DNA of 64,000 nucleotides. Origin: Octopus vulgaris (taxonomy: Eukaryota). Made by a program: the position numbers and the translations under genes. Numbering within the stretch: the stretch's first letter is position 1; every line of letters begins with the position of its first letter. The stretch is taken from assembly GCA_951406725.2 (NCBI GenBank), contig OX597833.1, forward strand, positions 70,928,001-70,992,000. Reading direction: 5' to 3'. Shown here piece after piece: positions 7,338 through 53,460 of the stretch. Under the pieces are notes generated by a model. That model saw nothing but the letters and a program-made list of their open reading frames with translations. It was not told the DNA's origin and ran no database searches.

Positions 7338-8537
7338 CATTGCCAGTGCCTCTGGACTGGCTCCTCTGCAGGTGGCACATAGAAAACCCCATCTGAGCAT
7401 GGCTGTTGCCAGTGCCGCTGGACTGGCTCCTCTGCAGGTGGGACATAGAAAACCCCATCTGAGCATGGCTGTTGCCAGTGTCACTGGACTGGCTCCTCTG
7501 CAGGTGGCACATAGAAAACCCCATCTGAGCATGGCTGTTGCCAGTGCCACTGGACTGGCTCCTCTGCAGGTGACACATAAAAACCCCATCTGAGCATGGC
7601 TGTTGCCAGTGCCGCTGGACTGGCTCCTCTGCAGGTGGCACATAGAAAACCCCATCTGAGCATGGCTGTTGCCAGTGCCACTGGACTGGCTCCTCTGCAG
7701 GTGGCACATAGAAAACCCCATCTGAGCATGGCTGTTGCCAGTGCCGCTGGACTGGCTCCTCTGCAGGTGGCACATAGAAAACCCCATCTGAGCATGGCTG
7801 TTGCCAGTGCCACTGGACTGGCTCCTCTGCAGGTGGCACATAAAAACCCCATCTGAGCATGGCTGTTGCCAGTGCCGCTGGACTGGCTCCTCTGCAGGTG
7901 GCACATAGAAAACCCCATCTGAGCATGGCTGTTGCCAGTGCCACTGGACTGGCTCCTCTGCAGGTGGCACATAAAAACCCCATCTGAGCATGGCTGTTGC
8001 CAGTGCCGCTGGACTGGCTCCTCTGCAGGTGGGACATAGAAAACCCCATCTGAGCATGGCTGTTGCCAGTGTCACTGGACTGGCTCCTCTGCAGGTGGCA
8101 CATAGAAAACCCCATCTGAGCATGGCTGTTGCCAGTGCCGCTGGACTGGCTCCTCTGCAGGTGGCACATAGAAAACCCCATCTGAGCATGGCTGTTGCCA
8201 GTGCCACTGGACTGGCTCCTCTGCAGGTGGCACATAAAAACCCCATCTGAGCATGGCTGTTGCCAGTGCCGCTGGACTGGCTCCTCTGCAGGTGGCACAT
8301 AGAAAACCCCATCTGAGCATGGCTGTTGCCAGTGCCACTGGACTGGCTCCTCTGCAGGTGGCACATAAAAACCCCATCTGAGCATGGCTGTTGCCAGTGC
8401 CGCTGGACTGGCTCCTCTGCAGGTGGGACATAGAAAACCCCATCTGAGCATGGCTGTTGCCAGTGCCGCTGGACTGGCTCCTCTGCAGGTGGCACATAGA
8501 AAACCCCATCTGAGCATGGCTGTTGCCAGTGCCACCT
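7338..8537. repeat. Minisatellite, 65-66-bp unit, ~18 copies
   Basis: Unit gccagtgccgctggactggctcctctgcaggtggcacatagaaaaccccatctgagcatggctgtt. Confidence 0.95.
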
Positions 8538-26995: not shown

Positions 26996-27289
26996 ATCAT
27001 TATTATTATTATTATTATTATTATTTCAAATAATGATTTTTTTTTTAAATGTTTAACACTGCCACATGAAGTATCTTTCCTATTTCTCTCACTAATTTAT
27101 TAATTTGCACGTACTAATTAATACCCTGAAAATTTAATTCATACAAGTTGTCTGTCTACCAAACGAATCTCTGTGTGTCTGTTTAATGAAATTATAAAGA
27201 AACAGAGAGGAATTACCTGGAAATTAATAAAATTCAACGAGTTTCTCTTCTCCTTTCAGTTTTGATGTATTGACCAAGTGTTTAATGAT

Positions 27290-27415
27290 ATGGGCATGGC
27301 AGAAGACGAACCGCTTTTTAGGCTGGATGAGGACATTATTGATTCTGGTAAACCTTGTAAGATTCCTGTTCCACGAAGGGCTGATGGCAAATTGGGTTTC
27401 AGCATAATTATTCAA
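27290..27415 (+). CDS. Coding exon 1 (MGMAEDEPLF...RRADGKLGFSIIIQ), start of PDZ1
   Basis: Acceptor ctcttctcctttcag at 27259, ATG in gatATGG context, GLGF-like carboxylate loop GKLGFSI, donor caa|gtaaga. Confidence 0.85.
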
Positions 27416-27966
27416 GTAAGAATTGGTTATTTTTTCTTTTTTACATATCTTTGATGCCTCTCACTATCCCTCTTACTCTCTCCCCCTTTTTCACAGCCTA
27501 AGACTGACCCCTCTTCTCTCGGGGTTTCTAGTCTTGTGAGCTGCATAACAACCTCAATAGTGATCATCATCATCATCATCATCATTGTTTAATGTCCGCT
27601 TTCCATGCTGGCATGGGTTGGACGATTTTGACTGAAGGCTGGCGAACCAGATAGCCGCACCAGGCTCCAATCTGATCTGGTAGGGTTTCTACAACTGGAT
27701 GCCCTTCCTAACGCCAACCACTCCGAGAGTGTAGTGGATGCTTTTTACGTGCCACCGGCATGGGGGCCAGTCAGGCGGCACTGACAACGACCTCGCTCGA
27801 ATCTTTTACACATGGCACAGGTGCCAGTAAGGCGACGATGTATAAAAGCATCCAGTCCACACTCTGCAAAGTGGTTGGCATTAGGAAGGGCAGCATCCAG
27901 CCGCAGAACCCATCCCAAGGCTGACACAGGAATCTGATGCACTTGTGCAATGGGAAACTGGCTTTA

Positions 27967-28000
<34 letters not shown>

Positions 28001-31000
28001 GTGCAGTTGTTATTTTCTTTTCTTTTACTGGTCTTAGTCATTGGGCTGTGACTGGTCCAGCTGGAGCACTTTCTGACTTCTAAAATGTAACAAGTAAAAA
28101 TATGGAACTTTGGCAGCATTTAGTCCCATTGGAGAGTTCCTGGAATCCCTTCTCCAGTGCCCTTATACTCACCTCATAATACCGATTCTGGCATTACAAA
28201 TCTGTTTTGTATGTTTGGTGTGTGTGTCTGTGTGTCTGTGTACACAAGGTCTGACTGAATATTGCAGTCTGTGGATATATATACCCTGGCGATTTCAGCT
28301 GTTGCACCAACTGTATTTTTATACTTCTTGACTTTTGGCCCACCTTGTCAGGTGTTCATGACATGTGTGTGTGTGTGTGTGTGTGTGTGCATGAGTGTCT
28401 CCTAGATGTATTACTCTTACTCTTTACTCTTTTACTTGTTTCAGTCATTTGACTGCGGCCATGCTGGAGCACCGCCTTTAGTCGAGCAACTCGACCCCGG
28501 GACTTATTCTTTTGTAAGCCCAGTACTTATTCTATCGGTCTCTTTTGCCGAACCGCTAAGTAACGGGGATGTAAACACACCAGCATCGATTGTCAAGCAA
28601 TGCTAGGGGGACAAACACATACATATATATATGTATATATATACACACACGGGAGGCTTCTTTCAGTTTCCGTCTACCAAATTCACTCACAAGGCTTTGG
28701 TCGGCCCGAGGCTATAGTAGAAGACACTTGCCCAAGGTGCCACGCAGTGGGACTGAACCCGGAACCATGTGGTTGGTAAGCAAGCTACTTACCACATAGC
28801 CACTCCTACGTCTACGTATTCTTTAATTGCATTCTAATTCACTCATCCATTTTTTTTTTCTTTCTGTTTTCCAGAAATGTTCCAGTGGAAACATCGCCAA
28901 GGTGACGCAGGTGAAAGACACCTGTTTGTCACGAGAGTTGACCAAATACCACTACATCACAAAAATCGACGAAATTGACATCCGTCACTTGAAGACTCCA
29001 ATGGAGGTTGAGAGTGTGCTGAGTCTGTCGTCCGGCACCGTTGTCCTCTTGGAGGCGTACCGATCTCTCTATCATGATTCCAATGATAATATTCAGAGGA
29101 TGAGTTTGAACTCGAGTGTGTGCAGCAGCAGCAACAGCAGCAGCACAAACAGCATGAATTCTCTGCTGCTGGATGCTGATGGTAGCTGCCATTCTCAACC
29201 GGTGCCAAGACCCATCGCTACTGATACAGTCTCACTGAAAGATGCTGTCTTCAAGAATCCGGATAGCATCCAGTGGGATGCCAAACCAAAAACTGTGATA
29301 TTGAAGAGATCCAGTAGCGGCAAATTTGGATTTGTCTACGAAGTCCTTCTTTCCTCGGTAAATATTTCACTGCCAAGATTGTTGTTTCTCTTTACGTTTC
29401 TCATTTTGCATTCCACCAAGTTCTGCTTTACTTTTGCATCCTTCCAGGGAGGAAACGAATAAGTCCTTGGCCTCCTTGTGCCGACACACTGACAAACGGA
29501 CCCAGGTGGCTTCTTTCATGAGTGGTGGCCACTGTCATTGGTTTTGGGTAGTTTTCATTTGGATACCATTCTCCAATATGTCCTTTTAGTAAATCATTAT
29601 ATTCTTTACCACAGCAGTGAGTCTGCAGAGCTGTCAGCATTCTGGGCAAACTGCTTTGTGGCATTTCATCTGTTTTTAAGTTCTGAGTTCAAACTCTGCC
29701 AAGGTCAACTTTACCTTTCACCCTTTCTGGGTCGATGGAATACACCAGTTGCACCCTGGGATTGATGTAATTGACTCACTCCTGCTCCCAAAATTTCAGG
29801 CCTTGTGTCTGTAGCAGTAAAGGTTATTCATATATTATTTCATATCTAACAAATCTCTTTTCTTCTTCTTTTTTTCAGTTGGTTCCTAAAAACTCGGTGA
29901 ACACTTCTATGGTGAGTAAACCTGTGCGTTTCCTAATCCTTTGTAGCTTGTTCTGAATTTTAACCCTTTGGCTTGTTTAAACTGGCCAAATCCGGCCCAA
30001 ATATTCTACCTATTTTATGTTCAAACTGGCCAGATTCAGCCTATCACACCTATCCTACAATGTCGTTCTAAAAATAAACAGTCACATCACTGAAATCTCA
30101 AAGCTATGAGATACAGGGCACAGGTTTGCAAATGTGGTTTACTGAAGGAGAAAATGCATTTATTATAAAACAGCTGCAAGCGTTACCTTTTGTGCCACCT
30201 AATGACGTAGATACTGTTTGAACAATTCCTTCATTCTTTGAGTGTTCAAATTGATGAAATTTTGGAGGAATTCCTGTCTTATTTTGTGTGTACTCGGGTA
30301 GTAATCGTGCAATGTGGATGACGTCGAAGACCCCTATCTGACATTTCTTTATGGCAGTGCTACCACAGAGTTCTCAATGATCTCCCGGAAACCAACAACT
30401 CCCTAGGAGGTTGGCACCATGCCTTCAGTAGAAGAATTAACATCCATCACCCTAACATATCCAAATTGAGAAGCTTAACCTTTTCGTGACCAACCCGGCT
30501 GAAACTGCCTCTGGCTTTGTAGCACAAATGTCTTGTTTTCATAAGTTTTGAATTAAAATCTTCCACCAAACTTTAGTCACAGTTTATGTTCCTAACACTA
30601 ACTGAATGATAACTAAGTTATTTTACTAAGTTCTTTGTTATATTTAAAGTAATTGAAAGAAACTCAGAGCATCTCAACAGAAATATGGTAATGAAAGGGT
30701 TAACCCTTTAGTGTTCAGATTATTCAATCAAACATAATGTCTATTGATTCCCATTGATTTGAATTAATCATGCATTATCTCATATCTTCAAGATCTTGAT
30801 GGTGTAATTACTTAATGTAGAATAACATTGTAGGGTAGGTGTGAGAGCCTGGATCTGGTCAGTTTGAACATAAAACAGATTAGCTATTTTGGCCGGATAT
30901 GGCCGGTTTAAATACTAAAGGGTTAAGGTAGAACAGTTCCAAACCGAAATGGTAATAAAACTGGCCATATCAGGGATTGAAGTGGCAAGGAAAAGCAAAA

Positions 31001-34000
31001 AATAAATTCACCCAAAGGAAAGACTTAAAACTTTTGTTCTTCATTACAATGATGAAGCTGGGTTGGAATTTTGAAGGACAGGTGTCCATAATTGTATACT
31101 CTTTTACTTGTTTCAGTCATTTGACTGCGGCCATGCTGGAGCACCGCCTTTACTCGAGCAACTCAACCCCGGGACTTATTCTTTTGTAAGCCCAGTACTT
31201 ATTCTATCGTTCTCTTTTGCCGAACCGCTAAGTGACGGGGACATAAACACACCAGCATCGGTTGTCAAGTAATGCTAGGGGGACAAACACAGACACACAA
31301 ACACACACATTATATATATATATATATATATATATACGATGGGCTTCTTTCAGTTTCCGTCTACTAAATCCACTCACAAGGCTTTGGTCGGCCCGAGGCT
31401 ATAGTAGAAGACACTTGCCCAAGGTGCCACGCAGTGGGACTGAACCCAGAACCATGTGGTTGGTAAACAAGCTACTTACCACACAGCCATGCCTGTATGT
31501 GATTTCTGTATTTCTATTTGTAAGACAAACAAAACCTTTTGTGCTTTTTTTTCATGTTGACCTATTTTGCGTAATATCTTTTTATAAATAAATTACTTTT
31601 ATTTGTAAGTCTAATAAAACTTTTTCATAATTTTTACTTTGTTTTTTAAAAATTGTCGACATATTGTCCTTTTGGCAAATTGTCCAATCGGTCAATTGTC
31701 CTGTCTGTAAGTTGTCTCTCGGCCAACTATCTGTTGATGAATTGTCTGTCTACCATTTTTTAGCGTACAGGTATTAGGAAGAGCATCCAGCCATAGAAAC
31801 CAGGCCAAGCTGGAGCCTGTTACAGCTCTCCCACTGACCAATTCCAGTTAAACTATTAAACCCATGCCACCATTGAAAGCAGACACTAAATGAGGGAGTA
31901 AGCACTGGGCTCTGGAGAGATTCTCCTGTCCTCAACCAAACTTTAGGCCCCTCTTCACTCTGCATCCGCTGCTTTCATTTGTCGACCACCTTACAGAGCA
32001 GACTGGACACAGTCTGGGGTTGCCTTCTTATCTACAAGTGTCTGGATGCTCTGCTGTGTCTCTTGTTCAAACGTCATCAATTCTTCTGTGAACTCTTTTA
32101 TAATTAACCCTTTTAGTGTTCAGGTTATTCTATCAAACATAATGCTTATTGATTCCCATTGATTTGAATAAATCATGCATTATGTCATATCTTCAAGATC
32201 TTGATGGTGTAATTACTTAATGTAGAATAACATTGTAGGGTAGGTGTGAGGGCCTGGATCTGGTCAGTTTGAACATAAAACAGATTAACTATTTTGGCCG
32301 GATATGGCCGGTTTAAATACTAAAGGGTTAATTATTGGTCAGAAAGCAAATCCACCTGATTGAAAAAAAAGTAGAAAGAAGACAAGTGGAAGTTTTGAAA
32401 TTTAGTAATTTTTCTTTCTTCTATTTTTTCCAGTATTTTCTTATAACCAAGCTATCAAATGATGCCGCCAGGAAGCTAAAAGTTGGTGACCTCATCCTCT
32501 CTCTAAATGGTATTGCTTGTCAAGACCTAAGTGTGGTGAGTGTATATATTTCTGGATCTATATATATATATATATATATGTATGTATAAGGGTGAAAAGG
32601 AACACACGAGTTGATATATATGAAAAAACAAGTCAAAATAGAAAATGCTAAAATAATTTTATAAAGAACATTTCAGTACCGGTTTCGGTCATTTTGAGAC
32701 CTTTTCAACTGTAACGATTAAATAATTAAATTTAGATAAATTAAAAGAAAAGTTTTTTTAAAGGAATATTTGTATAGTGTTCAAATATAAGTGGCATTTT
32801 CCTTGTTTCTGCCTTTCTCTGTCTCTCTTGTTAACCGCTCTACAATATATATATTGTAAGGTGGTTTAACATATTTAATTATCTTTGGTGTTTGACGAAA
32901 ATCCTATCAAACATATTATTTAATTATTGTCAAAAAACTTAATTGATTTCGAGAGCAACTTTGAAAGCTAGGGACACATGTGAGGGTTATACTAATCTTG
33001 TATTATTCCAAAACTTAAATAATTACATTTGTCATTGAACTTTGGAAATTTCCCACAAATGTAATCAGGTGTACAGGCCATACCTCAATAAGCCCAATAA
33101 ATTTAATGGAGTATATTTTTACTAAATTGGCTAATTTGACATTACTGAAATGCAACATTTAATTTTAGAATAAAACATTGATATCGTTTTTTTCTTCTTT
33201 TTTTCTAGATAAAATAATATTTCTTTTGATTAATTTTTTTCTTCAATTTTTAAATTAAATTCTTTTCTTTTATTCTCCAGAAAAAAGTTATTGACCAGAA
33301 AATAGAAACCGAATCTGAGCTACGACTAATTATTCAAAGACCCGTCAAATTCAAACATAGAAACAATCCGTGTGTTGAACAGAAGAGGATTTGTCCAATA
33401 AAAAGGGTGTTCTTGTGTGGCCCTGCTGCCATGGTGTATTACAACTTCCTGGTGAACAGACTGAAGTCGAACCGTCACAAAACGTCTCAGAATTATCCAA
33501 TGCCAGAAACAAATCTCAATAATGATACAGCTGCTTTCAAAGCTTCCTGTGTGTGGACCCAGCGAGGGACATTTTTTGTTGAGTCCTGGAGTAAACGATC
33601 CTGGTTTTACCATTTGGACGTGAAGCATCTGATAGCGCTTGAGCTACTCGCTTCATCGGACGAGTCTTTCTTTCATCATTGCATGAAACTCACTTTTACT
33701 AAAAACAGCATTTTCTTCATCATGCTGGACTGTCAGCTGTCAAGCGTTACGCAAGGATCCAAGCAAGCGGAACTGCGAATGCTGAAGAGATACATCCATA
33801 CGATTCAGTCTTGCGTTGGAAAAGAGGTACAAATTAAAGTGAAATGTGTCTGTCAGGATAACAGTGAACAATGTCGCAATCAACACAATTACTTCATTGA
33901 CAAAATAATGGTGGAACCCATTGTTATTCCTTCAAATTCTGACCAAAACAGTGACACATTTGTAAATTCTGTCTTTGAACTCGCTAAACAAAAGGAAATC

Positions 34001-36884
34001 TCAATGAGTTACCATGCGGCTTATGCGCTGCACAAGCTCTACCATCTTGGTCTCTGCAAAAGTATTGCAACTGACTTTTTCAAAACTGTTCACAAAGTCT
34101 TTGATAAAATTTCTCAGCAGGATCTTCATCAAACGGTGCGTGAAATGAGTTCCTTCAAATATTATATTGGAGGTAAGTCGTTAGTTGGAGTGGGGAAAAT
34201 ATTTCTTATTTTATTGTAATTTCATCAATTAACTTTTATCATTGTAATAATATTAAAGATTAATTAATTAAATTAATACAACTAAAGAAGGAGGAGGAGG
34301 GCAATAATAATCAAAATCTTGATTGCAATTACTATCATCATCAGCATCATCATTATCAATTTATAAACATTGAGGTTGCTGGTTCTAAGTTTCCAGTAAA
34401 CCAGCCAATGACTCACAGCATTTTTGATGCTCAGGGTCCCAACATGACCATCCAATACAATTTGGATGTAACAGAGACCAAGGATTTTTGTTTAAAAGCA
34501 CCTGTTTATTGGGTTCACATCTTTCATTGATTGGCGCAGGCTTGATGTTAAGATGTTTATCAACAACATGGCTTCAGGTTCGATCCCACTACGTGGCACC
34601 TTGGGCCAATCAAATCCATGTCGTTAGATTTGGTAGACAGAAAATGCAAGAAACCCACAGTTGTGCTCAGACTTTTCCATTCAACAGATCGTATTTAACT
34701 CAATCCACTGCTTACCATTCTCTGTTACCTGTCTTTCACAAGCCAATGTAGGAAACCTCTCTGTGGTTGCTTATCCTACAAGAAACAGTAAGCTGTGCTC
34801 TTGAGCAAGGTGCACAACTCTGCTTGGTTAAGGAAAAACTGGCTCTTCTTGTATTTTGTGGTTGCAGTATTTAGAAAGGATGTCCATACAATTGCCATTT
34901 GGTATCCAAGAAATCAAAGCCTGCTAAGATGCTGGGGAAATGACATACATGGTGAAAAAATTGGGGCTCAAATGAAAGAGAAGGGAACAATCCAAGGGAG
35001 AATGGAATAACTTTGTGACCATCCCAAGAAGTCCAATGCTCATCATCATCATCGTTTAACGTCCGTTCTCCATGCTGGCATGGGTTGGACGGTTCGACCG
35101 GGGATCTGGGAAGCCAGAAGGCTGCACCAGGCTCCAGTCTGATCTGGCAATGTTTCTACAGCTGGATGCCCTTCCTAACGCCAACCACTCCGTGAGTGTA
35201 GTGGGTGCTTTTTACGTGCCACCTGCACAGGTGCCAGGCGAGGCTGGCAACGTCCATGGTCGGATTGGTGCATTTTACATGCCACCGGCACGGAAGCCAG
35301 TCGAGGCGGTGCTGGCTTTGGCCACAATTCGGATGGTGCTTTTTACGTGCCACCGGCATGGAAGCCAGTCGAGGCGGCACTGGCTTCGGCCACGATTCGG
35401 ATAGTGCTTTTTATGTACCACCAGTCCAGGGGTCCTGGCATCTGCCAGGTGCCAGTCATAGGATTGGTTCGCTCGGTGAAGAAATTTAGTTAATAGAAAC
35501 TGCAAGAAGCTTGTTGCATATGTGTGTGTGTGTGTACTTTATTCTACATTGTGTGTTTATGATGTTTTACTTGAACCGACTTGTGGTGGTGATGTTGGCA
35601 TTCTTTGTTGACATTATGACCAATGGCTCCGTGTTTTTGAATAGGAATTCTGTAGACGAGGTCAGAACAGTTACTGGTGGAGTATTTTTCATCACGGAAA
35701 AGTGAATTCCAGAAGAGGGGTCTTGCAAGTCTACCAGTTAGTTGGAAGAGCATTGTAGAAAATAAAGGAGAGGATATTTTAGAATAAAAAAGAACTTTAT
35801 CTTAATTTTGAAAAAATAAAAGAATTATAAAAAACCTGCATTATTTATGGGATGAGACCCAATCTATGTATAAATGCATGATGGGAAGATAAGGCAGTAT
35901 TGGTCTGTTGAACAAAATATCGTATGAAGCCCTTTGCACTCAATTGATTTTGCTTTGCTTCTGTTCTTAATTATGAGGTAAGAACCAACCAAAGAATAGG
36001 ATTCAATATGATTAATTAAAACTCTCTAAAGTGGTGCCCTAGCAATGGCTTCATTCCAGTGACTGGAGCCAGTACCAAGAGAAAGAACCCTGGTAATTGG
36101 AAACTGTGGGGAAGCCTATCAGATACGATGATGATGATGATGATGATGATGATGATATGGAGTCCCTCCTTATAAACAAATTGAGATCGGCCGTTAACAA
36201 CAGGAAGGAACCACATCTAGCAAACTGGTTGCTATAGCAACACCAGTCTATACATATTTCCTTCCTCCCACACACATTTCAGCAACAAATTTTCCATTCC
36301 TTGCTTTTTATCCAAATGTCCTGAAGAAGGTGTCATAACCCCAAAATATAGAAATGCAAAGGTCAAGCGGTCACTTTGTTTTCTTTTTCCTTCTGTTGTT
36401 AACTTTGTACCTTCTCACATTGACCAGCGGCCCTTACACAACAAACCCCTTTAAAGCTGCATCACACACTGCTTCACCAAAAACTTCTCCATTTTAATAT
36501 ATCTACGTGGGGGGGGGGGGGAGTATTTGTTTGAAAAGAGATGGGGGTTGGTGAGAGGAGGGGCATCCAACCATAGAAAGTTTGCCTCAGTGAAATGCAT
36601 TTGACCCATCCAAGCACAGAAAGGTGGACAGTACAACAACGATGATGACATAATACTCTTTACTCTCTTTTACTCTTTTACTCGCTTCAGTCATTTGACT
36701 GCAGCCATGCTGGAGCACCGCCTTGTAGTCGAGCAAATCGACCCCGGGACTTATTCTTTTGTAAGCCCAGTACTTATTCTATCGGTCTCTTTTGCCGAAC
36801 CGCTAAGTGACGGGGACGTAAACACACCAGCATCGGTTGTCAAGCAATGCTAGGGGGACAAACACAGACACACAAACACACACA

Positions 36885-36942
<58 letters not shown>

Positions 36943-39900
36943 TACAACGGGCTTCTTTCAGTTTCCGTCTACCAAATCCACTCACGAGGCATTGGTCGGC
37001 CCGGGGCTATAGCAGAAGACACTTGCCCAAGGTGCCACGCTGTGGGACTGAACCCGGAACCATGTAGTTCGCAAGCAAGCTACTCACCACACAGCCACTC
37101 CTGCGCCTATTCATATAAAATGTAAACAGAATCATCCACATCATCATCATCATCATCATTTTGTCTGCTTTCCATGCTGGCATGAGTTGGATGGTCAAAC
37201 AGAATCCAATAAGTTGGACGACCATGTCTTCTTCCAATGTCACATTTTTAGCAAGGTTTCACCATTTTAAAGTGTGTGTGTGTGGCTTACTTCACACCTT
37301 CAAATACTTGAGAAATAGGAGATCTCATACTTGAGAAACAAGGAAGGTTTGGTGATGTGAGGGGTGTCCATTGCTGAAATGAGAGCTCAAAATCTCTCGT
37401 GGAAGCGCCATCCAACCAAAATGCAAATATATGGGAAACTACCACCTGTGTCATCCCTTGTGAAAGGTAGGAGAGTCCAGTTTGCTGGACATTGTTGTAG
37501 AGCTTAAAAAGAGGTCATTTCTACTCTTCTCCTCTGGAAGCCATCTACTCGCAATACCAGAGGGCGCACACTCTCCTACCCTGATGTAATCTCCAGGGAT
37601 ACAGGCATCCAGCAACAGGACCTCCGTAATGCCATGATGGACCGTGAAGTCTGGCGTAGCATGGTAAATTCCATTGTCTTGACCACGGTCGAACAATGAT
37701 GATGATTGCTAAAATAGTACTTCAATAATATATTAGTCTAACCCATGGAAAAGCAAACATAAAAACAAGGAAACAGATATGATATACGTGTGTGTGTGTG
37801 TTTATTTTCATACAGATATATGTCTATGTAAAATACGAAACTCAATGCAAACCATTTTTTGAATTTATGAATGTGCATCTGTCTTTGATTTTCACTGAAA
37901 AATGTAAACATTGGTGAGGAAAACCAATAAAAACCATTGATTCCAAGCCAAAATACCTTGTATATTTGTTCTGTTACAGCTGCACATATACTCCCTTCTT
38001 ATTCTCACTGTGAAAAATACAGGGAATCCATGACTGGTGCCGCTGGAAACCTGTTCTTCACAAAATGGTGTAAAAATTAAAATTAAATTAGTAGAATATT
38101 CGTTTGTTTCTGTGTCTGGTTTGCAAGATTTTTGATGTGAATTTTGTGTGTTGAAACAAATTTTGTGTTTTGGGAGGGTCATTGCACCAACAATAACACA
38201 TGCACTGACTGTGTGTTATTATTGACATAATGACCTTTTCAGCACACAACAAGAAATAGAATATATATTTTCCAATTTATATTAACTTTTTTTATTTATT
38301 TCTATTTTCCAGTAAATTCCAGAAAATCTGCTCTTTTACCACAAGGAAATAGTTTATATGTAAACATTGAGTACGTTTTAAACTCCATGTCTCAGCTTGC
38401 ATATCAACCAATTTCTTTAGTGAGCAGAAGTCACACTTTCTCTCAATACCACAAAATACCCAACGGAATAGTGGACCAACAGGTTCTGGTCGACAACTTG
38501 TATCCCAGTGATGTCTTCAGCCATTCAGTCCTTGCGTTACTCGAGAGCCACAATGTGATATTAAGCTTAAAGGAGTCGGGCCAGTACGCCTGCACCAAAT
38601 ACTACATCCCCTGTTTGCAGCACAGTTACCAAATGGAAGTGCAGAACCCGTTGATGCATAATGTTTTCTCACTCTACATTCAGTTCTGCAGCAGTGCACA
38701 GCACACGGACTTTCTCAGGCTGGTCATTTCCTTTGGAAATTTATACGGCTGGGAATTACCTCAAGAGATCCAATTATCCCAGTGCAACATCATGGTCGGA
38801 ACACATATGGTTCACTTTCAATACCAGTGGCAGACCCAGCAGGTCAAAATCACCTCAGAGTGAGTTACCTTTTGCATTCGATTAATTTCTCGTTAACCCT
38901 TCAGCATTCAGATTACTCTGTCAAATATAATCCTTATTTATTCTCATTGTTTCGAATTAAAATCATGGATTATCTGCGGAATCCATAAGTGGAAAGTGTA
39001 ACCTCTCGTAAGAGCTGTTCTTCACTCCTGCTCCAGAGCGTCGGCTGCAGGGTCACTCCGAAAAGATCTATCTGCCCCTCTCAAAAGAGAGGGGCTTTCT
39101 CCGTCCGGGTTGCGGATCCGTGGAATAAGCTGCCAGATGAGATAGTGAAGATGCCGACGACTGCTCGGTTCAAAGTCTCTCTCTCTTGACCAGAAATGGC
39201 TTGAACTCTTTGCATGAACACCACCCTCCTTGTACATAACTCCATGTCCCCCTACATGGCCTTGCTTTTTGCTTTTTGAGCCAAAAAATTAACTTAACTT
39301 AACTTAACTATCTCATAGCTTTGAGATTTCAATGATGTGATTGTATATTTTGGAATGACATTGTAGGGTAGGTGTGAGAGGCTGGATCTTGACAGTTTGA
39401 ACCCAAAACGTTGAATATTTGGGCTGAATGTGACTGGTTTGAATGCTAAAGGCTTAGTCATAATTAGAAAGTGTCTCAACCTTTTGCTTATCATATTTCT
39501 ATTAAAATACTCTTTGCTCCATTTAATTATGAAAATAATGAAGAATTTATTATTGAGCTGGCATTTAGAGTATAAATTAACATGAGCCTTTGATGAAAGG
39601 ATTTTAGATCACCTTAACTGTTTTTTGTTACCATATTTCTATAGAAATGGTCTTGTTTCAATTCATTTTGAAATAATGAAGGATTTTATAAAATAACTTT
39701 TCATCATTAAGCTGGTGTTTGAGACATCATCATCATCATCATCATCATCATTTAACGTCCACTTTCCATGCTAGCATGGGTTGGACGATTCGACTGGGGT
39801 CTGGGAAGCCAGGAGGCTGCACCAGGCCCAGTCTGATCTGGCAGTGTTTCTACAGCTGGATGCTCTTCCTAACGCCAATAAATCAATATTAAATTTTTAT

Positions 39901-42900
39901 AGAAGGTTTCAGTTTAGATCATTTTGAAATAAACACACGCACACACACACACACACATATGAACAAACAAACAACAGATCTCCACACATTCTCTCTCTAC
40001 TAAATTCCTTTACAAGGCATTTGTCAGCAACGGGTATAGTAAAAGACACTTTCCCAAGGTTCCGCACAGGAGGAACTGAACCCAGAACCCTTTTTATTTT
40101 CTTCTCTTTCTTAGATCCAATACCTGTGAGATCAACTTGTTTGATCATTATTTGGAGGAAATGTTTGCACAAAAACATACGCAAGGAAGGAATTTTTAGA
40201 AAGCTGGCATTCTGCAGAATGAACACGGGGCTTGAAAGAATGTGTGTGTGGTGGAGGGGTGCATAGTACATATATGTCTATATATATATATATATATTAA
40301 CCTGGCTTTTATTTTCGTTTTATTTTCCTCTAGAATCACAACTCAGTCCAATGAAGAAACTCTATTTCACATATTCCAACAACTTCATCAAGTCTGCGTG
40401 GCTGTATTCCCATACAGCTTCTTCAAGTATTACGGACGATGCCACAACCCACAGTGCATCTACTGTTGCCATTCTCAGAGGAAACATGAATCTCCAATCT
40501 TTTGCACACATCTCATCAATGAAACCCAAGTGAAGCAAATCGTAAGTTATTCCTCTCTGTGTGTGTTCTTTACTGTTTTGGTCATTAAGCTGTCTTTGGA
40601 CTGCAATGTCATCATCATCATCATTGTTTAACGTCCGTTTTCCATGCTAGCATGGGTTGGACAGTTCGACCAGGATTTGGAAGGAGGCTGCACCAGGCAC
40701 CAGTCTGATCTGGCAAGGTTTCTACAGCTGAATGCCCTTCCTAATGCCAACCACTCCATGAGTGTAGTGGGTGCTTTTTACATGCCACCGGCACAGGAGC
40801 CAGAGGAGTCCATTGCAGAATTTCTTGTTCCCTCACCATTTATTTGATCTCTTATCATTATGCTCTGTATTCAACTAATGCTTTATTCTGAGGCATATAT
40901 CTATTGAGTTCTAACCCCAAGTTATTACTATCGCTATGCCTAAGTAAAACATGTATATATATATATATATATATATCATCATCATCATCATCATCGTTTA
41001 ACGTCTGCTTTCCATGCTAGCAGTGGTTGGACGGTTCAACTGGGGTCTGGGAAGCCAGAAGGCTGCACCAGGCCCAGTCTGATCTGGCAGTGTTTCTACA
41101 GCTAGATGCCCTTCCTAACGCCACATATATATATATATAGAGATAGATAGATAGATAGACAGATATGTATACTAACACATTCATACATGATGGGCTTCTT
41201 TCAGTTTCTGTCTACCAAATCCACTCACAAGGCTTTGGCCTGTCCAAGGCTATAGTAGAAGACACTTGCCAAAAATGCCATGCATTGGTATTGAGCCTGG
41301 AACCCCATGGCTGGGAAGCACGCTTCTTAACCATGAAGCCAGGCCTGTGCCAAAGTTATTTTCAAAAGATTTAAAAAGAAGCCATGTTGAACACTGCTAT
41401 TTCGAGTTCCTTTTCATCTTTTTTCTTTCTTTTTATTCCGTTTTCAGGGTAAAGTGATCGATGTTGAAAAAATGTCTGTACTTGAGTTGAATTCCAAAAT
41501 TCTCTTTCACATCTGTCTGGAACTAAATTCTAACCCAAGTCTCAACTGGAAAATGCTGGCTGGTAAGAGAACCTACAACCTACATCCAACACCTTTGTCG
41601 TTGTTTTAAATGTCCTCCTTTCCATGCTTGTAAGGGTCTCCCTGACTCTGTCAAAGCTGACTTTTTCATGGCCTGATGTGCTTCTTCTCATTAACCCTCA
41701 CCTGTTTCCAGATAAGATTAATATTTCCCCATGGTTGAATGTGTTTCCAAGGAAGACAGGAAACGAATGACACTGCTTGTATGACAGTGACACTCGTTTA
41801 CAACTGTCACACCATGTCAAGACAGACATTCACACACTCACACACACACGTGTATGTACAACGGGGTTATTCCAGTTTCAGGGTCTTTGGTTGCAGTAAA
41901 GGCTGTAGTAGAACACACTTGTCCAGGGTGCTGTGCAGTGGGTTTGAAACTAAGACCTTCCGGTTTGGAAGCATTGAAATCTCTTACTCTTTACTCTCTC
42001 TTTTACTTGTTTCAGTCATTTGACTGTGGCCATGCTGGAGCACCGCCTTTAGTCGAGCAAATCGACCTCGGGACTTATTCTTTTGTAAGCCCAGTACTTA
42101 TTCTATCGGTCTCTTTTGCCGAACCGCTAAGTAACGAGGACATAGACACACCAGCATCGGTTGTCAAGCAATGCCAGGGGGACAAACACAGACACACAAA
42201 CACACACACGCATATATATATATATATACACGACAGGCTTCTTTCAGTTTCCGTCTACAAAATCCACTCTAAAGGCATTGGTCGGCCCAGGGTTATAGCA
42301 GAAGACACTTGCCCAAGATGCCACACAGTGGGACTGAACCCAGAACCATGTGGTTGGTTAGCAAGCTACTTACCACACAGCCACTACTGCGCCTATTTAT
42401 TTTTCGGACATTTCCATTTTCGTTGTTTATTCTTGAAGAATTGCAACTAACTGATTGGGAAGGGCAATATTGGTGTTGTACCCCCCCTTAATTCAGCCCT
42501 GATCAAGCGGACATGTAGTCAGAGGCCTTCCAGTTATGACTCTCCCATTGGAGAGCGACGAGATTTTATTGGAGTTATCTCCCTTGCTAAATCTTTCTTA
42601 TTAAAACTTCTGAATAATTTTGATGCAGAATAATTAAACGGATGCAAAACCTGTTTGTTCTTTCGTTAATATTAAGGGAGGTTGGGCTCATTCGTAAGTT
42701 TGAGAACTTTTTCCCCGAAGGCAGGGGGAGGGGATATTTGTCCCTCAGTTTTATGCATAATCTCTGTGTAGGTTCATTGATTCTTTATCACTGGCATGGC
42801 TCTGCGTTTTTTGGCTTAAGCCAGTGTTAACACATCTTATGCAGGGAGCTCTGATGCTTTTGTTTTCTATCTTTGCTCTCTCTCTCTCAAAATTTACATT

Positions 42901-44673
42901 TGAAATCCAAATGGGATAAAAAAAATGTTTAAAATAATAATGAAATTATTGTATACGGTGCTCAGGTGCACCACAACTTGTTAGAGTACATGCAGTAGTG
43001 TACAAATGTCTGGAAAGCGAAGAATGCATGAGTAAGATACATGCCTGTGTGTGTATGGAGGGGAGAAAATCAGGTGTAGTGTTGGCGAATCTCAGGAAGC
43101 ATGGAAGTTTTGAAGGATGCAGTGCTCCGACAACTAACAACTGATGCCGGCAGTTTGTTCCATGCTTCAGCAACTCTCAGCGTGAAAAATGTTTCCTGAA
43201 GTCATGGGAGCTGTGCTGTTTTCTGACTTTGTAAACATGTCCACGGGTGTTAGACGGGTGGAGTTTGAAAAGGTGCTCAGAGTTATTGTTTGTACGATGG
43301 TTGATAATTTTATGGGTGTCTGCCAAGTCAGCTGCCAGACTCCGGAGTTGATGGACGAGGAATTACTCTATATCACTCTCGGATGAAAGAGGCTGGGGAT
43401 GTAACACAAGATGGTTTTTTTATGTTTTTATGGGATGTCTAACATGTTGGGCATGCAGTTACAATTTGATGTTTGTTGCTGGTGGCACTAAAGAAAATTG
43501 AAATATGGACCTGGCGATTCCATCTCTGCTGCTGCGGCTGGACACTTTTACATCTGCTTCTAAGACTTCTGTGCTTTGTGGTGTGGTGGAGATTTGAAAC
43601 TGAATCCCTGCTTACATGGTCAGACATCAGGAGCAAAACACCACATGTTCCACGTGATCAGTCTATTGACTGGTCAGTGTGAAGTGATGGTGGGGGGCAG
43701 GTTTTCTTGGACATTCTGGACATTACCCATGACTTTCAGAAATGTCCTGTTGTTTGGATTTATAAACATGTCCACAAATGGTAGAATTTCAAAAAGGTGG
43801 ACATGTTTACAAAGTCAGAAAACAGCACAGCTCCTTCCAGGACTTTCAGAAACATTTTTCATGTTAAGATTTGCCGAAGCATGGAACAAACTGCCGGCAT
43901 CAGTTATTAGTTGTCGGAGCACTGCATCCTTCAAAACTTCCATGCTTCCTGAGATTTGCCAACACTACAACTGATTTTCTCCCCTCCATACACACACAAG
44001 CATGTATCTGACTCATATACTGTTCACTTTCCAGACATTTGTACATTACTGCATATACTTTATACACACTTTTGACAAGTTGTGGTGCACCTGAGCACTG
44101 TATACAATAATTTCATTATTATTATTATTTATATACCATACCTATTTCTTTACTACCCACAAGGGGCTAAACACAAAGGGGACAAACAAGGACAGACATA
44201 GGTATTAAGTTGATTACATCGACCCCAGTGCGTAACTGGTACTTAATTTATCGACCCCGAAAGGATGAAAGGCAAAGTCGACCTCGCCGGAATTTGAACT
44301 CACAACGTAACGGCAGACGAAATACCTCTAAGCATTTCACCCGGCGCGCTAATGTTTCTGCCAGCTCGCCGCCTTTATATACCATACCTGTTTCCTGCTT
44401 ATTACACACACACACACATATTAAAATATTTCTTGATCAATGTTCTGTTTTCTTTCCTCAGGTCATTTGAACTGTGATCTTTCTTTGGTCGGAAGATATG
44501 AAAGCAGCCAGGATCCCTGCATAAATGTTTTGGTCGACTGGAATAATACATCACTGAACAGCACTGCAATAAACTTCCGTAAGATTCTTCATGACATGAA
44601 GCGATACGACCTGGCTAAACTCGTTGAAGAGGAATTGGACAAACTTAGAAGAGAACAGAGTAGTGACTGCTAA
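27290..44673 (+). CDS. Spliced 9-exon gene, 905 aa: PDZ-PDZ-degenerate Roc-COR-Death domain protein (Roco-like scaffold)
   Basis: Exons 27290-27415, 28875-29357, 29879-29911, 32434-32535, 33281-34172, 38313-38859, 40334-40541, 41448-41562, 44462-44673 join in frame (phases 0,0,0,0,1,2,0,1; 2718 nt). Each acceptor has a pyrimidine tract plus AG and each donor is GTRRR-type. In-frame TGA upstream of ATG 27290; AATAAA at 44697-44702. Confidence 0.88.
27565..28000. mobile_element. Inverted pair of RTE-tail elements in intron 1
   Basis: 27565-27840 on the minus strand abuts 27841-28000 on the plus strand ending in (GAT)n. Confidence 0.7.
28412..28808 (-). mobile_element. SINE family A
   Basis: Sequence identity to other copies. 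Confidence 0.85.
28875..29357 (+). CDS. Coding exon 2: rest of PDZ1, Ser-rich linker, start of PDZ2 (KRSSSGKFGF)
   Basis: Acceptor ttctgttttccag, open frame inside ORF 28827-29462, donor tcg|gtaaat. Confidence 0.88.
29879..29911 (+). CDS. Coding exon 3: 33-nt microexon LVPKNSVNTSM within PDZ2
   Basis: ctaac branch-like motif, long pyrimidine tract and cag, donor atg|gtgagt, phase 0-0. Confidence 0.75.
30475..30926. mobile_element. piggyBac-type MITE 1 and MITE 2 sharing one TTAA
   Basis: Junction gaaaggg-TTAA-cccttta at 30700-30703. Confidence 0.85.
31097..31493 (-). mobile_element. SINE family A
   Basis: Sequence identity to other copies. Confidence 0.85.
32104..32331. mobile_element. piggyBac-type MITE family 2
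   Basis: TTAA-CCC...GGG-TTAA, nearly identical to 30700-30926. Confidence 0.85.
32434..32535 (+). CDS. Coding exon 4: PDZ2 core (YFLITKLSNDAARKLKVGDLILSLNGIACQDLSV)
   Basis: Classic PDZ motif LKVGDxILxxNG; acceptor ttttttccag, donor gtg|gtgagt. Confidence 0.9.
32674..32711 (-). ncRNA. Minimal hammerhead ribozyme motif, U3-A8 core, intron 4
   Basis: Minus strand CAG-TTGAAAA-GGTC tcaaaat GACC-GAA-ACCGGT-A-CTG: all three stems, GUA triplet. Confidence 0.65.
33281..34172 (+). CDS. Coding exon 5: end of PDZ2, degenerate Roc domain, start of COR
   Basis: 892-nt open exon; RVFLCG (G1 position), FFHHCMKLTFTKNSIFFIMLD (Roc post-G3 pattern); donor gag|gtaagt. Confidence 0.88.
35040..35460 (-). mobile_element. 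RTE-tail element with ~4 internal subrepeats
   Basis: Conserved tail followed by repeated ttttacgtgccacc units; shorter copies at 39725-39877, 40608-40803, 40977-41123, 54030-54300. Confidence 0.75.
36654..37108 (-). mobile_element. SINE family A
   Basis: Sequence identity to other copies. Confidence 0.85.
37460..37706 (+). pseudogene. RTE-like LINE C-terminal fragment
   Basis: Translates, with a frameshift, to QFAGHCCRA...WKP...RGRTLSYPDVISRDTG...LRNAMMDREVWRSMV, then (TGA)n tail. Confidence 0.65.
38313..38859 (+). CDS. Coding exon 6: COR-like domain
   Basis: Phase-1 acceptor tattttccag; NGIV...LALLESHNVI...YYIPCL pattern typical of COR; donor ga|gtgagt. Confidence 0.85.
38976..39309 (+). 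mobile_element. CR1 family 1 3' fragment inserted in a MITE family 2 copy (38893-39456)
   Basis: FSVRVADPWNKLP motif, (AACTT)n tail, tatct repeated at both junctions. Confidence 0.8.
40334..40541 (+). CDS. Coding exon 7: COR C-terminal part with Cys/His-rich segment
   Basis: Phase-2 acceptor ttttcctctag; RCHNPQCIYCCH...FCTH; donor atc|gtaagt. Confidence 0.85.
41448..41562 (+). CDS. Coding exon 8: Death domain N-half (LELNSKILFHICLELNSNPSLNWKMLAG)
   Basis: Acceptor ccgttttcag; death-domain WKxLA motif; donor ctg|gtaaga. Confidence 0.85.
41985..42394 (-). mobile_element. SINE family A
   Basis: Sequence identity to other copies. Confidence 0.85.
42930..43400 (-). mobile_element. CR1-type LINE family 2 3' fragment
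   Basis: Minus strand RGHVYKVRKQHSSHDF..LRVAEAWNKLPASVV..FK, (ATT)n tail. Confidence 0.8.
43790..44129 (+). mobile_element. CR1-type LINE family 2 3' fragment, inverted relative to 42930-43400
   Basis: FFMLRFAEAWNKLPASVISCRSTASFK, (ATT)n tail. Confidence 0.8.
44140..44376 (-). mobile_element. SINE family B
   Basis: Matches 6950-7168; flanked by tataccatacct direct repeats (possible TSD). Confidence 0.8.
44462..44673 (+). CDS. Coding exon 9: Death domain C-half and stop
   Basis: Phase-1 acceptor tctttcctcag; DPCINVLVDW...LHDMKRYDLAKLV matches death-domain PxxxLLxxW...LxxMxRxD; TAA at 44671-44673. Confidence 0.88.
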
Positions 44674-44696
44674 ATCTTAGTTTAATTCTCAGATTT

Positions 44697-44702
44697 AATA
44701 AA
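44697..44702 (+). promoter_or_regulatory. Candidate polyadenylation signal
   Basis: AATAAA 24 nt after the stop, followed by a U-rich tract; second AATAAA near 44886. Confidence 0.45.
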
Positions 44703-45049
44703 ACGACTTTTTTTTTTTTTATTATTTGGGGCAAATTCTTCTGAGAATTCACTGCTTGATATGTTGTTTTTATCAATTTTGTAAATATTTTTTTTTTTTT
44801 TTTTAATATATACACAATTATACCCTTTCGCATGAGACTTTACTGCAGTTTCAAATAAGACAAGAATTTCAACCAAATCTTATCCAATAAACTTCCAAGT
44901 TACAGTGTCTTGAAATCTGGGCAATTTTTCTTTTTTTTTTCTTTTTTTTTTTTTTTTTTTTTTAAATTTAAAGCCAAATGATTTTGTCCAAATTCTTGTT
45001 TTCTGTAAATAATCTGGAGTAGCAACTCTCCTCGATGTGTTTTATCCTG

Positions 45050-47002: not shown

Positions 47003-47449
47003 GTGAATTCTGCATAATTTATTCTATGACCTCTGCATAATTTATGTGACCTCTGCATAACTGCATAATTACATCTGAACTCCCCTTAACTTCTATGTGA
47101 TCCCTTTGTGACTTATACCTCCAATTTGCATAATTTATGTGTAACCTTTCTCCCATTTTTTTTTATTTTTCTGCTCAAACACACTGCCTTTGGTTTTACT
47201 TAATTTGTAAAATAATGCAAAAATTTAACGAAACGACTTTTGTTATTAATTAACCTGATGCTCTGAACAAAAAATTAACCTGAAATTTGGATGCAAGTTG
47301 TTAATTCAGATTCCTTTAAAAGATGAAGGTTTGTATTAAAGAACCAGGGCCAGGTTGGTATCAAAGGAATTATGCATGAGTTCTTGGTAACTTAGGAGCG
47401 ACTTCTACACAGCTTAAGGATCATCTCTTATTTGGAAACCATGGGTAAA

Positions 47450-50400
47450 TTATGTGTGAGTCATCTACATATATTAAGTGTAACTCCTTTGCATAAATTA
47501 TTTCTGACACTTCTGCATAGATTATTCGTGACTTCTCTGCATAGATTACTTGTGACTTCTCTGCATAAATTATACATTACTCATTTGCATAAATTATTTG
47601 TGACTCCTCTGCATAGATTATTTGTTACTCCCCTGCATAGATTATTTGTGACTCCTCTGCATAGATTATTTGTGACACCACTGCATAGATTATTTGTGAC
47701 TCCTCCGCATAGATTATTCGTGACTCCACTGCATAGATCCTTTATGACTCCTCTGTATAGATTATTTATGACTCCTCTGCATAGATTATTCGTGACTCCT
47801 CTGCATAAATTATTCGTAACTCCTCTGTATAGATAATTTGTGACTCCTCTGCATAGATTATTTGTGACTCCTCTGCATAGATTATTTGTGACTACTCTGC
47901 ATAGATTATTTGTGACTCCTCAGCATAGATTATTTGTGACTCCTCTGTACAGATTATTTGTGATTCCTCTGCATAGATTATTTGTGATTCCTCTGCATAG
48001 ATTATTTGTGACACCTCTGCATAGATTATTTGTGACTCCTCTGCATAGATTATTTGTTGACTCCCTGCATAGATTATTTGTGACTCCTCTGCATAGATTA
48101 TTCGTGACTCCTCTGCATAGATTATTCGTGACTCCTCTGCATAGATTATTCGTGACTCCTCTGCATAGATTGTTTGTGACTCCTCTGCATAGATTATTTG
48201 TGACTCCTCTGCATAGATTATTTGTGACTCCTCTGCATAGATTATTTGTGACTCCTCTGCATAGATTATTTGTGAGTCCTCTGCATAAATTATTTGTGAC
48301 TCCTCTGCATAGATTATTTGTGACTACTCTGCATAGATTATTTGTGACTCCTCAGCATAGATTTTTTGTGACTCCTCTGTACAGATTATTTGTGATTCCT
48401 CTGCATAGATTATTTGTGATTCCTCTGCATAGATTATTTGTGACTCCTCTGCATAGATTATTTGTGACTCCTCTGCATAGATTATTTGTGACTCCTCTGC
48501 ATAGATTATTTGTGACTCCTCTGCATAGATTATTTGTGACTTCTTTGCATAGATTATTTGTGACTCCTCTGCATAGATTATTTATGACTCCTCTGCATGA
48601 ATTATTTGTTACTCCCCTGCATAGATTATTTGTGACTCCTCTGCATAGATTATTTGTGACACCACTGCATAGATTATTTGTGACTCCTCTGCATAGATTA
48701 TTTGTGACTCCTCTGCATAGATTATTTGTGACTCCTCTGCATAGATTATTTGTGACTCCTCTGCATAAATTATTCGTGTCTCCTCTGCATAGATAATTTG
48801 TAACTCCTCTGCATAGATTATTTGTGACTCTTCTGCATAGATTATTGGTGACTCCTCTGCATAGATTATTTGTGACTCCTCTGCATAGATTATTTGTGAC
48901 TCCTCCGCGTAGATTATTTGTGACTCCTCTGCATAGATTATTCGTGACTCCTCTGCATAGATTATCTGTGACTCCTCAGCATAGATTATTTGTCACTTCT
49001 CTGCATAGATTATTTGTGACTCCTCTGCATAGATTATTTGTGACTCCTCTGCATAGATTATTTGTGACTCCTCTGCATAGATTATTTGTGACTCCTCTGC
49101 ATAGATTATTTGTGACTCCTCTGCATAGATTATTTGTGACTCCTCTGCATAGATTATTTGTGACTCCTCTGCATAGATTATTTGTCACTTCTCTGCATAG
49201 ATTATTTGTGACTCCTCTGCATAGATTATTTGTGACTCCTCTGCATAGATTATTTGTGACTCCTCTGCATAGATTATTTGTGACTCTTCTGCATAGATTA
49301 TTTGTGACTCCTCTGCATAGATTATTCGTGACTCCTCTGCATAGATTATTTGTGACTCCTCTGCATAGATTATTTTTGACTCCTCTGCATAGATTATTTG
49401 TGACTCCTCTGCATAGATTATTTGTGACTCCTCTGCATAGATTATTTGTGACTCCTCTGCATAGATTATTTGTGACTCCTCTGCATAGATTATTTGTGAC
49501 TCCTCTGCATAGATTATTTGACTCCTCTGCATAGATTATTTGTGACTCCTCTGCATAGATTATTTGTGACTCCTCTGCATAGATTATTTGTGACTCCTCT
49601 GCATAGATTATTTGTGACTCCTCTGCATAGATTATTTGTGACTCCTCTGCATAGATTATTTGTGACTCCTCTGCATAAATTATTCGTGACTCCTCTGCAT
49701 AGATTTTTGTGACTCCTCTGCATAGATTATTCGTGACTTCTGCATAGATTATTTGTGACTCCTCTGCATAGATTATTTGTGACTCCTCTGCATAGATTAT
49801 TTGTGACTCCTCTGCATAGATTATTCGTGAGTCCTCTGTACAGATTTTTCGTGACTCCTCTGCATAGATTATTTGTGACTTCTCTGCATAGATTATTTGT
49901 GACTCCTCTGCACAGATTATTTGTGACTCCTCTGCATAAATTATTTGTGACTCCTCTGCATAGATTATTGTGACTCCTCTGCATAGATTATTTGTGACTC
50001 CTCTGCATAGATTATTTGTGACTCCTCTGCATAGATTATTTGTGACTCCTCTGCATAGATTATTTGTGACTCCTCTGCATAGATTATTTGTGACTCTTCT
50101 GCATAGATTATTGCTGACTCCTCTGCATAGATTATTTGTGACTCCTCTGCATAGATTATTCGTGACTCCTCTGCATAGATTGTTTGTGACTCCTCTGCAT
50201 AGATTATTTGTGACTCCTCTGCATAGATTATTTTTGACTCCTCTGCATAGATTATTTGTGACTCCTCTGCATAGATTATTTGTGACTCCTCTGCATAGAT
50301 TATTCGTGACTCCTCTGCATAGATTATTTGTGACTCCTCTGCATAGATTATTTGTGACTCCTCTGCATAGATTATTTGTGACTCCTCTGCATAGATTATT

Positions 50401-53400: not shown

Positions 53401-53460
53401 TTGTGACTCCTCTGCATAGATTATTCGTGAGTCCTCTGCACAAATTATTCGTGACTCCTC
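47450..53460. repeat. Minisatellite, 24-bp unit TTATTTGTGACTCCTCTGCATAGA, ~250 copies
   Basis: Direct reading; source of the LFVTPLHR/NNLCRGVT/IIYAEESQ pseudo-ORFs. Confidence 0.97.

Follow-up and report, generated by a model that had tools for sequence, protein, structure and literature searches.

The 64,000-nucleotide window of Octopus vulgaris DNA analyzed here (contig OX597833.1, positions 70,928,001 to 70,992,000) carries on its forward strand a nine-exon gene whose 905-residue product combines two PDZ domains, a Roc-COR tandem of the Roco family and a C-terminal death domain. The Roc part of this tandem has lost its GTP-binding motifs, a loss seen in all 18 family cores compared. We consider it about evenly balanced whether the protein acts as a Roco-derived, nucleotide-independent scaffold that would be anchored through its PDZ domains and recruit death-domain partners. 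An earlier note, made from the DNA letters alone, had read the architecture as PDZ-PDZ-pseudoRoc-COR-Death, and this is borne out by profile homology of the core together with family-level PDZ and death-domain matches; the motifs it quoted are all present in the product. The gene, which that note called hidden, is already annotated at NCBI as uncharacterized (LOC115221472), and what is hidden is the Roc-COR middle, which had gone unrecognized and is unseen by Pfam.

The Roc-COR core and its missing GTP-binding motifs

Pfam detected neither Roc nor COR in the octopus protein, and the middle region was assigned by profile comparison. The core profile was made from 18 cores and contained no PDZ domain, death domain or active Roco. 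It matched the intact Roco protein P0032 with 119 bits over P0032 residues 446–894, and alignment of the core only to P0032 by HHalign gave an E-value of 4.7e-27. P0032 is itself a true Roco, with Pfam matches to Roc and COR-A and a match to LRRK2 at E 8.5e-10. HHalign of the 18 cores against six cyanobacterial Roc-COR regions returned 95.8% (E 7.4e-9, 300 columns), compared with 0.30% for the reversed control and 0.38% for the best of 20 shuffles, and an LRR-Roc-COR frame of the octopus genome scored 13.6 bits with the core profile, the best of 400 shuffles reaching 6.4 bits. The ESM Atlas provides a lead of its own kind, with a score of 0.91 for octopus residues 280–800 to Roc/COR clusters. 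Across three phyla, 18/18 cores are of full length and follow Roc-COR collinearly, with the COR-B region included. By homology, the middle region is thus a Roc-COR tandem that Pfam misses, and its GTPase and COR fold is predicted from profile homology that begins at β3, β1 being reached solely in the global alignment. A Cys/His-rich motif, a possible metal site, closes COR-B (window 40430-40500, approximately residues 760–786); it is common to most members and P0032 and is missing in four gastropod-clade cores.

The G1 P-loop GxxxxGK[ST], the G3 motif DF/YA/GG (DxxG, switch II) and the G4 motif THxD/NKxD are each present in 0/18 cores, with neither the P-loop Lys nor the Ser/Thr in any of them. 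In the octopus protein A372-S-S-D375 is aligned to DFGG at the G3 site and C437-V-C-Q-D441 to GTHRD at the G4 site, where the Asp alone (Asp-441) is retained. The strand ahead of the P-loop and its first glycine are kept, Gly-295 (the β1-Gly) being invariant in 32/32 rows, and the bacterial GKT falls into a three-column gap of the core alignment when the alignment is global. Because G1, G3 and G4 are missing in all 18 cores, the Roc domain is a predicted pseudoGTPase, of class i by the definition in the accessible text of PMC5593906, where one or more G motifs are missing, the GTPase fold is kept and no nucleotide is bound. In p190RhoGAP pG1, as described in the same text, helix 1 occupies the phosphate site, and by analogy the shortened P-loop of the octopus core would have the same effect. 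The best-conserved part of the pseudo-Roc is the segment just after G3, a region that packs on COR in Rocos (PMC6337361), which suggests that selection acts on the Roc-COR fold rather than on the switch.

Binding of a nucleotide or metal at an atypical site, with the Roc domain working as a slow switch, appears very improbable. It would fit the invariant Gly-295, the acidic residues that molluscs keep at the G3 site and the position of octopus Asp-441 at the G4 Asp, and some pseudoGTPases do still bind GTP (accessible text of PMC5593906), but the P-loop is shortened and without its Lys or Ser/Thr in every core, and the acidic G3 residues are lost in echinoderms.

PDZ domains, death domain and the family

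In the octopus protein itself, PDZ2 gives a sub-threshold Pfam match with an E-value of 9e-4, and the death domain one of 0.021 (exon 9), compared with 3e-6 for the death domain of Argonauta. PDZ1 has no Pfam match and is not picked up by the family PDZ2 profile; its assignment is suggested by the GKLGF motif, a top match in the Protein Data Bank (PDB) to the LIMK2 PDZ domain (E 0.046) and the 58% identity that it shares with PDZ1 of P0055. At the family level both PDZ domains and the death domain are firm calls by profile, with Pfam finding PDZ in 20/22 members and Death in 17/22 (best E 7.5e-13), and with the family profile matching the solved structures of p75NTR (7e-15), MyD88 (3e-11), NRADD, IRAK4 and UNC5B as well as many PDZ domains. 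The GLGF-type carboxylate-binding loop, GKLGF and GKFGF in octopus, is retained in most of the 32 aligned family PDZs, and a family-specific P..W extension is found in both PDZ domains.

Searched against the octopus genome, the family death-domain profile ranked a domain that we take to be MyD88-like first (43 bits), ahead of a DAPK-like domain (36 bits) and a ZU5-UPA-Death protein (30 bits). This order speaks against the same scaffold serving neural or developmental death-domain receptors such as p75NTR and UNC5 at junctions or synapses instead of immunity, which we regard as unlikely even though p75NTR heads the death-domain matches in the PDB, with NRADD and UNC5B also high. The single genome match of the gene and a molluscan tree that follows the classes would also suit such a role, being unlike the lineage-specific expansions of immune death-domain proteins in the accessible passages of PMC8195603.

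The family was collected by an exhaustive profile search begun from three octopod sequences, which returned 34 proteins; word-based protein searches got no further than cephalopod-level relatives and multi-PDZ proteins, and the wider family was seen in the exhaustive search alone. The multi-PDZ protein P0011 and the fragments P0016 and P0024 were dropped as non-members, as were the death-only or death-RING proteins P0022, P0023, P0025, P0030, P0033, P0035, P0036 and P0037, and P0032 was kept as an outgroup. The named members come from the bivalves and gastropods Argopecten, Mactra, Mya, Potamilus, Haliotis, Aplysia and Babylonia, the brachiopod Lingula and the echinoderms Asterias, Acanthaster, Antedon and Diadema, with further records besides. 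By sequence, the PDZ(1-2)-pseudoRoc-COR-Death family is thus one of octopods, bivalves, gastropods, Lingula and echinoderms, with two PDZ domains in Lingula and the full-length molluscan members and one in the echinoderms. This breadth, overlooked in the earlier note, which had called for a search of mollusc and other lophotrochozoan proteomes, rules out an innovation confined to cephalopods. The 20 matches looked up included no named member from vertebrates, arthropods, annelids or cnidarians, which in an octopod-seeded search does not imply absence. One bivalve member, P0010 (Mactra antiquata KAL4226970.1), bears the name MyD88 in its source record and is likely mislabeled, Pfam detecting PDZ together with Death but not TIR. 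A plasmid search for relatives of P0029 found none.

Two hemichordate proteins, P0012 (Glandiceps) and P0018 (Ptychodera), have both PDZ domains and the death domain without the Roc-COR core, and the 234-residue P0031 has a PDZ domain with the family extension and a death domain, also without the core. Since the hemichordate relatives link PDZ to death domain in this way, these forms point to such linking as the basic job of the family. They could also indicate that the core is a drifting relic linker in what is in effect a PDZ-death-domain adaptor, in keeping with a core identity of 26–34% between octopus and P0055/P0038 compared with 44–58% for the PDZ domains. This we judge improbable, because every one of the 18 proteins across three phyla keeps a complete, collinear core, which among octopods is as conserved as the remainder of the protein; one of the hemichordate records, moreover, is an isoform X2, the other isoforms lying outside the comparison.

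In a tree of the cores with eight active Rocos as outgroup, 17 cores lie on one side of a branch with an SH-aLRT support of 99, the nearest sampled active sequence is P0032, a kinase-less Roc-COR-Death protein, and the molluscan cores group by class. Lingula groups with the echinoderms (SH-aLRT 97), and a tree placing it with the molluscs is rejected at p-AU 0.025, in a topology test made on a quick tree with long branches. An old paralogy or a long-branch effect could possibly explain this position, and because Lingula sits with the echinoderms, strict one-to-one orthology across the phyla appears unsupported. A single inactivation before the protostome-deuterostome split would be the simplest reading. 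A wider proposal, to be taken as tentative, is that a nucleotide-dead Roco branch was inactivated once before that split and kept since, and that COR-mediated pairing, among its own copies or with active Rocos, would form PDZ-positioned death-domain platforms.

For a nucleotide-independent scaffold, the steps beyond the sequence are all ones that we infer. The Roc domain would keep its fold and bind no GTP, because its shortened P-loop has neither the Lys nor the Ser/Thr, a state like that of class i pseudoGTPases. COR-B would still dimerize, as in CtRoco, bringing two death domains side by side without GTP gating, so that the dead Roc-COR would serve as dimer and spacer. Location would be set by the PDZ domains, which would bind proteins of the membrane or cortex by their tails, and the death domain would enter assemblies of the MyD88/IRAK or p75/UNC5 type, with control by PDZ-driven clustering instead of a GTP cycle. 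The immune or apoptotic role that the earlier note proposed for such an adaptor is likewise putative.

Several results weigh against this scaffold and the Roc-COR assignment beneath it. Pfam finds Roc in 0/22 members and COR-A in two (best E 0.002). The core-only profile retrieved no Roco among the solved structures of the PDB at E-values up to 10, and neither did single echinoderm members; three Ty1 Gag matches in the PDB searches (E 0.1–0.2) were treated as chance. The register of β1 and the P-loop comes from a forced global alignment, local alignments starting at β3/G3. The likeness of the death domain, judged by sequence, names no partner. Class I PDZ specificity involves a His at the start of αB, which by eye is absent from the 32 aligned PDZ rows, both octopus PDZs included, and because the αB helix is also poorly conserved, peptide binding by the PDZ domains is not assured.

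Gene structure, transcript and other sequence features

The nine coding exons join in frame to 905 codons and a stop, with GT..AG at 8/8 introns, as the earlier note had described (Table 1). The product is identical to P0001 (CAI9738002.1, O. vulgaris, "uncharacterized"), whose cluster also includes XP_029647517.1 from O. sinensis and XP_014781956.1 from O. bimaculoides.

Table 1. Positions in the window of the exons, the encoded domains and the possible polyadenylation signal
Feature	Position	Strand	Remarks
Coding exon 1	27260..27415	+	ATG at 27290; aa 1-42; acceptor precedes 27260; in-frame TGA 27263
Coding exon 2	28875..29357	+	aa 43-203; remainder of PDZ1, Ser-rich linker, PDZ2 start
Coding exon 3	29879..29911	+	33 nt; aa 204-214; within PDZ2
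Coding exon 4	32434..32535	+	aa 215-248; PDZ2
Coding exon 5	33281..34172	+	aa 249-545; PDZ2 end, entire pseudo-Roc, COR-A start
Coding exon 6	38313..38859	+	aa 546-727; COR-A and COR-B
Coding exon 7	40334..40541	+	aa 728-797; COR-B end and Cys/His-rich motif
Coding exon 8	41448..41562	+	aa 798-835; first portion of death domain
Coding exon 9	44462..44673	+	aa 836-905 and TAA; remainder of death domain
PDZ1	27347..29060	+	~aa 20-104, across intron 1; GKLGF loop; weak alone, clear at family level
PDZ2	29241..33346	+	~aa 165-270; N-terminal P..W extension of family; GKFGF loop
Pseudo-Roc (predicted)	33389..33997	+	~aa 285-487; G1 site aa 290-300
COR-A and COR-B, terminal Cys/His motif (by homology)	33998..40520	+	~aa 488-790
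Death domain	41469..44646	+	~aa 805-897; profile nearest p75NTR, MyD88, NRADD, IRAK4, UNC5 structures
AATAAA, possible polyadenylation signal	44697..44702	+	sequence motif

Splicing was judged from joined exons in assembled contigs of four runs from four studies over window positions 27150-44900, runs that are only guessed to be RNA (no run is recorded as such) and whose contigs are not single molecules. All nine exons lie in one contig in two of the four runs, X1 (2740 nt) and X13 (2999 nt), and are split over two contigs in runs X5 and X7; PDZ and COR exons share one contig in 3/4 runs. Six junctions are recorded as joints in all four runs, and the exon 5-6 and exon 8-9 junctions were deduced from contiguous record coordinates. 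The gene is real, and the contigs support a single spliced transcript across its eight junctions, as read in the earlier note. Three of the four runs have a contig end at 44735-44737, beside a T-run. At the 5' end, an in-frame TGA lies 27 bases upstream of the ATG within exon 1, so that this exon cannot connect to an upstream kinase, and because contigs continue 121–186 nt past the exon 1 acceptor, a further-upstream non-coding exon is likely. Within intron 6 (window ~40114-40200) a pyrimidine tract and AG are followed by a short frame to a stop, a possible unused alternative exon, to which no joint was found among the contig joints listed.

Among the coding differences listed, 13/13 are synonymous, compared with 21% for random single changes. 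The octopus core is 69–77% identical to that of Argonauta and 92–97% identical to that of O. bimaculoides, the Argonauta orthologue as a whole being 71–74% identical to the octopus protein, and exon 6 has a single match in the octopus genome. Judged by these sequence comparisons, the gene is under purifying selection.

Of 18 members checked, 13 begin with Met-Gly or have it close to the start (window 27290-27295 for the octopus start); two of these, the NCBI models P0010 and P0013, start upstream of it and may be mis-started. What we take to be the N-myristoylation consensus fits just three of the 13 Met-Gly starts and does not fit that of octopus; the match in P0002 is an internal Met-Gly and not a start.

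Elsewhere in the window, positions 47449-53460 hold a 24-bp satellite of ~250 copies with 92% match and long repetitive minus-strand open frames, and arrays of 66-67-bp repeats lie at 888-1601 and 7340-8533. At L016:844-4047 (G000:C10, ~44.437-44.441 Mb) and L025:1453-1761 of the octopus genome, a 1068-residue single frame encodes an LRR-Roc-COR protein with intact G1, G3 and G4 and is followed, ~10 kb further downstream in the same orientation, by a death-domain exon; from their sequence, the two may together form an active LRR-Roc-COR-Death protein. Clustered similar death-domain exons on G000:C29 and C31 (L026-L043) likely represent an expanded gene family.

Comparison with known Roco and pseudoGTPase systems

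Roco proteins are defined by a GTP-binding Roc-COR tandem and fall into three architectures (PMC6337361, PMC6320773), and the main texts of these two reviews do not mention PDZ domains. The octopus protein has a homologous tandem and failed the motif tests, and by sequence it is Roco-derived and not a member of the active Rocos. All of its component domains were already known. The combination of PDZ, dead Roc-COR and Death is undescribed in the literature examined, where, supplements and most subscription papers being outside its scope, there was no description of the architecture, none of six member locus identifiers and no pairing of "pseudoGTPase" with "Roc domain". The accessible passages of PMC8195603 on Roco, COR and PDZ, in an account of related bacterial and invertebrate death-domain systems, also lack a PDZ-Roc-COR-Death architecture.

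DAPK1 (Roco group 3) shares the Roc-COR-Death order without an LRR (accessible text of PMC6337361 and PMC6320773). It differs from the octopus family in having a kinase and ankyrin repeats, and the octopus family has lost the G motifs; Pfam found no N-terminal Ser/Thr kinase or ankyrin repeats in 22/22 members. For comparison there is one partial octopus sequence, an exon with Pfam COR-A, COR-B and Death matches that we presume to be DAPK-like. The family profile aligned to this exon over 96 columns in the death domain only, and the core profile left it unmatched, compared with 547 columns aligned to P0032. An origin from DAPK, which the earlier note had pictured as the C-terminal half of DAPK1 with PDZ domains replacing the kinase, was rejected on this alignment, the COR not being close, and by sequence the octopus protein is not a member of the DAPK1 group.

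P0032 and the invertebrate Roc-COR-Death proteins offer the closer comparison, being collinear with the family from G3 via COR-A, COR-B and the Cys/His motif to the death domain. P0032 differs in its intact P-loop, its DYAG and GTHRD motifs, a hydrophobic insert inside Roc and the lack of a PDZ domain. The insert makes this 1054-residue protein an odd membrane-embedded Roco, being long, likely multi-pass and placed between G1 and G3; no relatives of P0032 were found in GTDB contigs. ESM Atlas clusters of the Roc-COR-Death kind show Roc in 92%, Death in 63% and COR-A in 62%, with Mollusca commonest. Together with the Aplysia TIR-Roco and MyD88-Roco of PMC9334734, these clusters show that the earlier note was too narrow in assigning LRRs to the other animal Rocos. 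The Aplysia proteins are likewise molluscan Roc-COR tandems fused to adaptor domains of innate signaling, and they differ from the octopus family in having TIR domains and in Roc and COR being detected by InterProScan (main text of PMC9334734, which mentions neither PDZ nor the Aplysia member LOC101853914).

The octopus protein might instead be a pseudo-enzyme partner, its COR forming a heterodimer with an intact Roc-COR-Death protein or TIR-Roco whose GTP cycle it damps or locks, with the PDZ domains placing the pair. Such a role would suit a nearest sampled active relative that is a collinear Roc-COR-Death protein, the frequency of such proteins in molluscs (ESM Atlas; accessible text of PMC9334734) and the fact that in Roco dimers each subunit completes the active site of the other (PMC6337361). 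It seems quite unlikely, however, as a search of the octopus genome with P0032 found the LRR-Roc-COR locus alone (a strict first look that sets a floor), the hemichordate forms have no core, and the divergence between the core and active Rocos is large.

A nucleotide-independent scaffold would add a conserved death-domain adaptor to invertebrate signaling, one overlooked because Pfam is blind to its core. LRRK1/LRRK2, MFHAS1 and bacterial Rocos such as CtRoco have Roc-COR tandems homologous to this core, but they bind GTP and carry LRRs, whereas the octopus family has PDZ domains, lacks G1, G3 and G4 and has no sequence match to these proteins in the PDB. That the G motifs were lost yet the whole tandem was kept in molluscs, the brachiopod and echinoderms suggests a structural role of Roc-COR separable from the switch, and a naturally empty Roc-COR would be a test object for the debate on how nucleotide state and dimerization are coupled in LRRK2. 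In known pseudoGTPases, too, the G motifs of a conserved domain have degraded within a larger scaffold, in a "middle region" missed by domain libraries; these proteins come from different lineages of G domain and lack COR, and for p190 pG1 the fold and the lack of binding have been shown, whereas here both are predicted. Should the wider proposal of one ancient inactivation hold, the dead Roco branch would form a pseudo-enzyme layer of Roco signaling, as pseudokinases do beside kinases.

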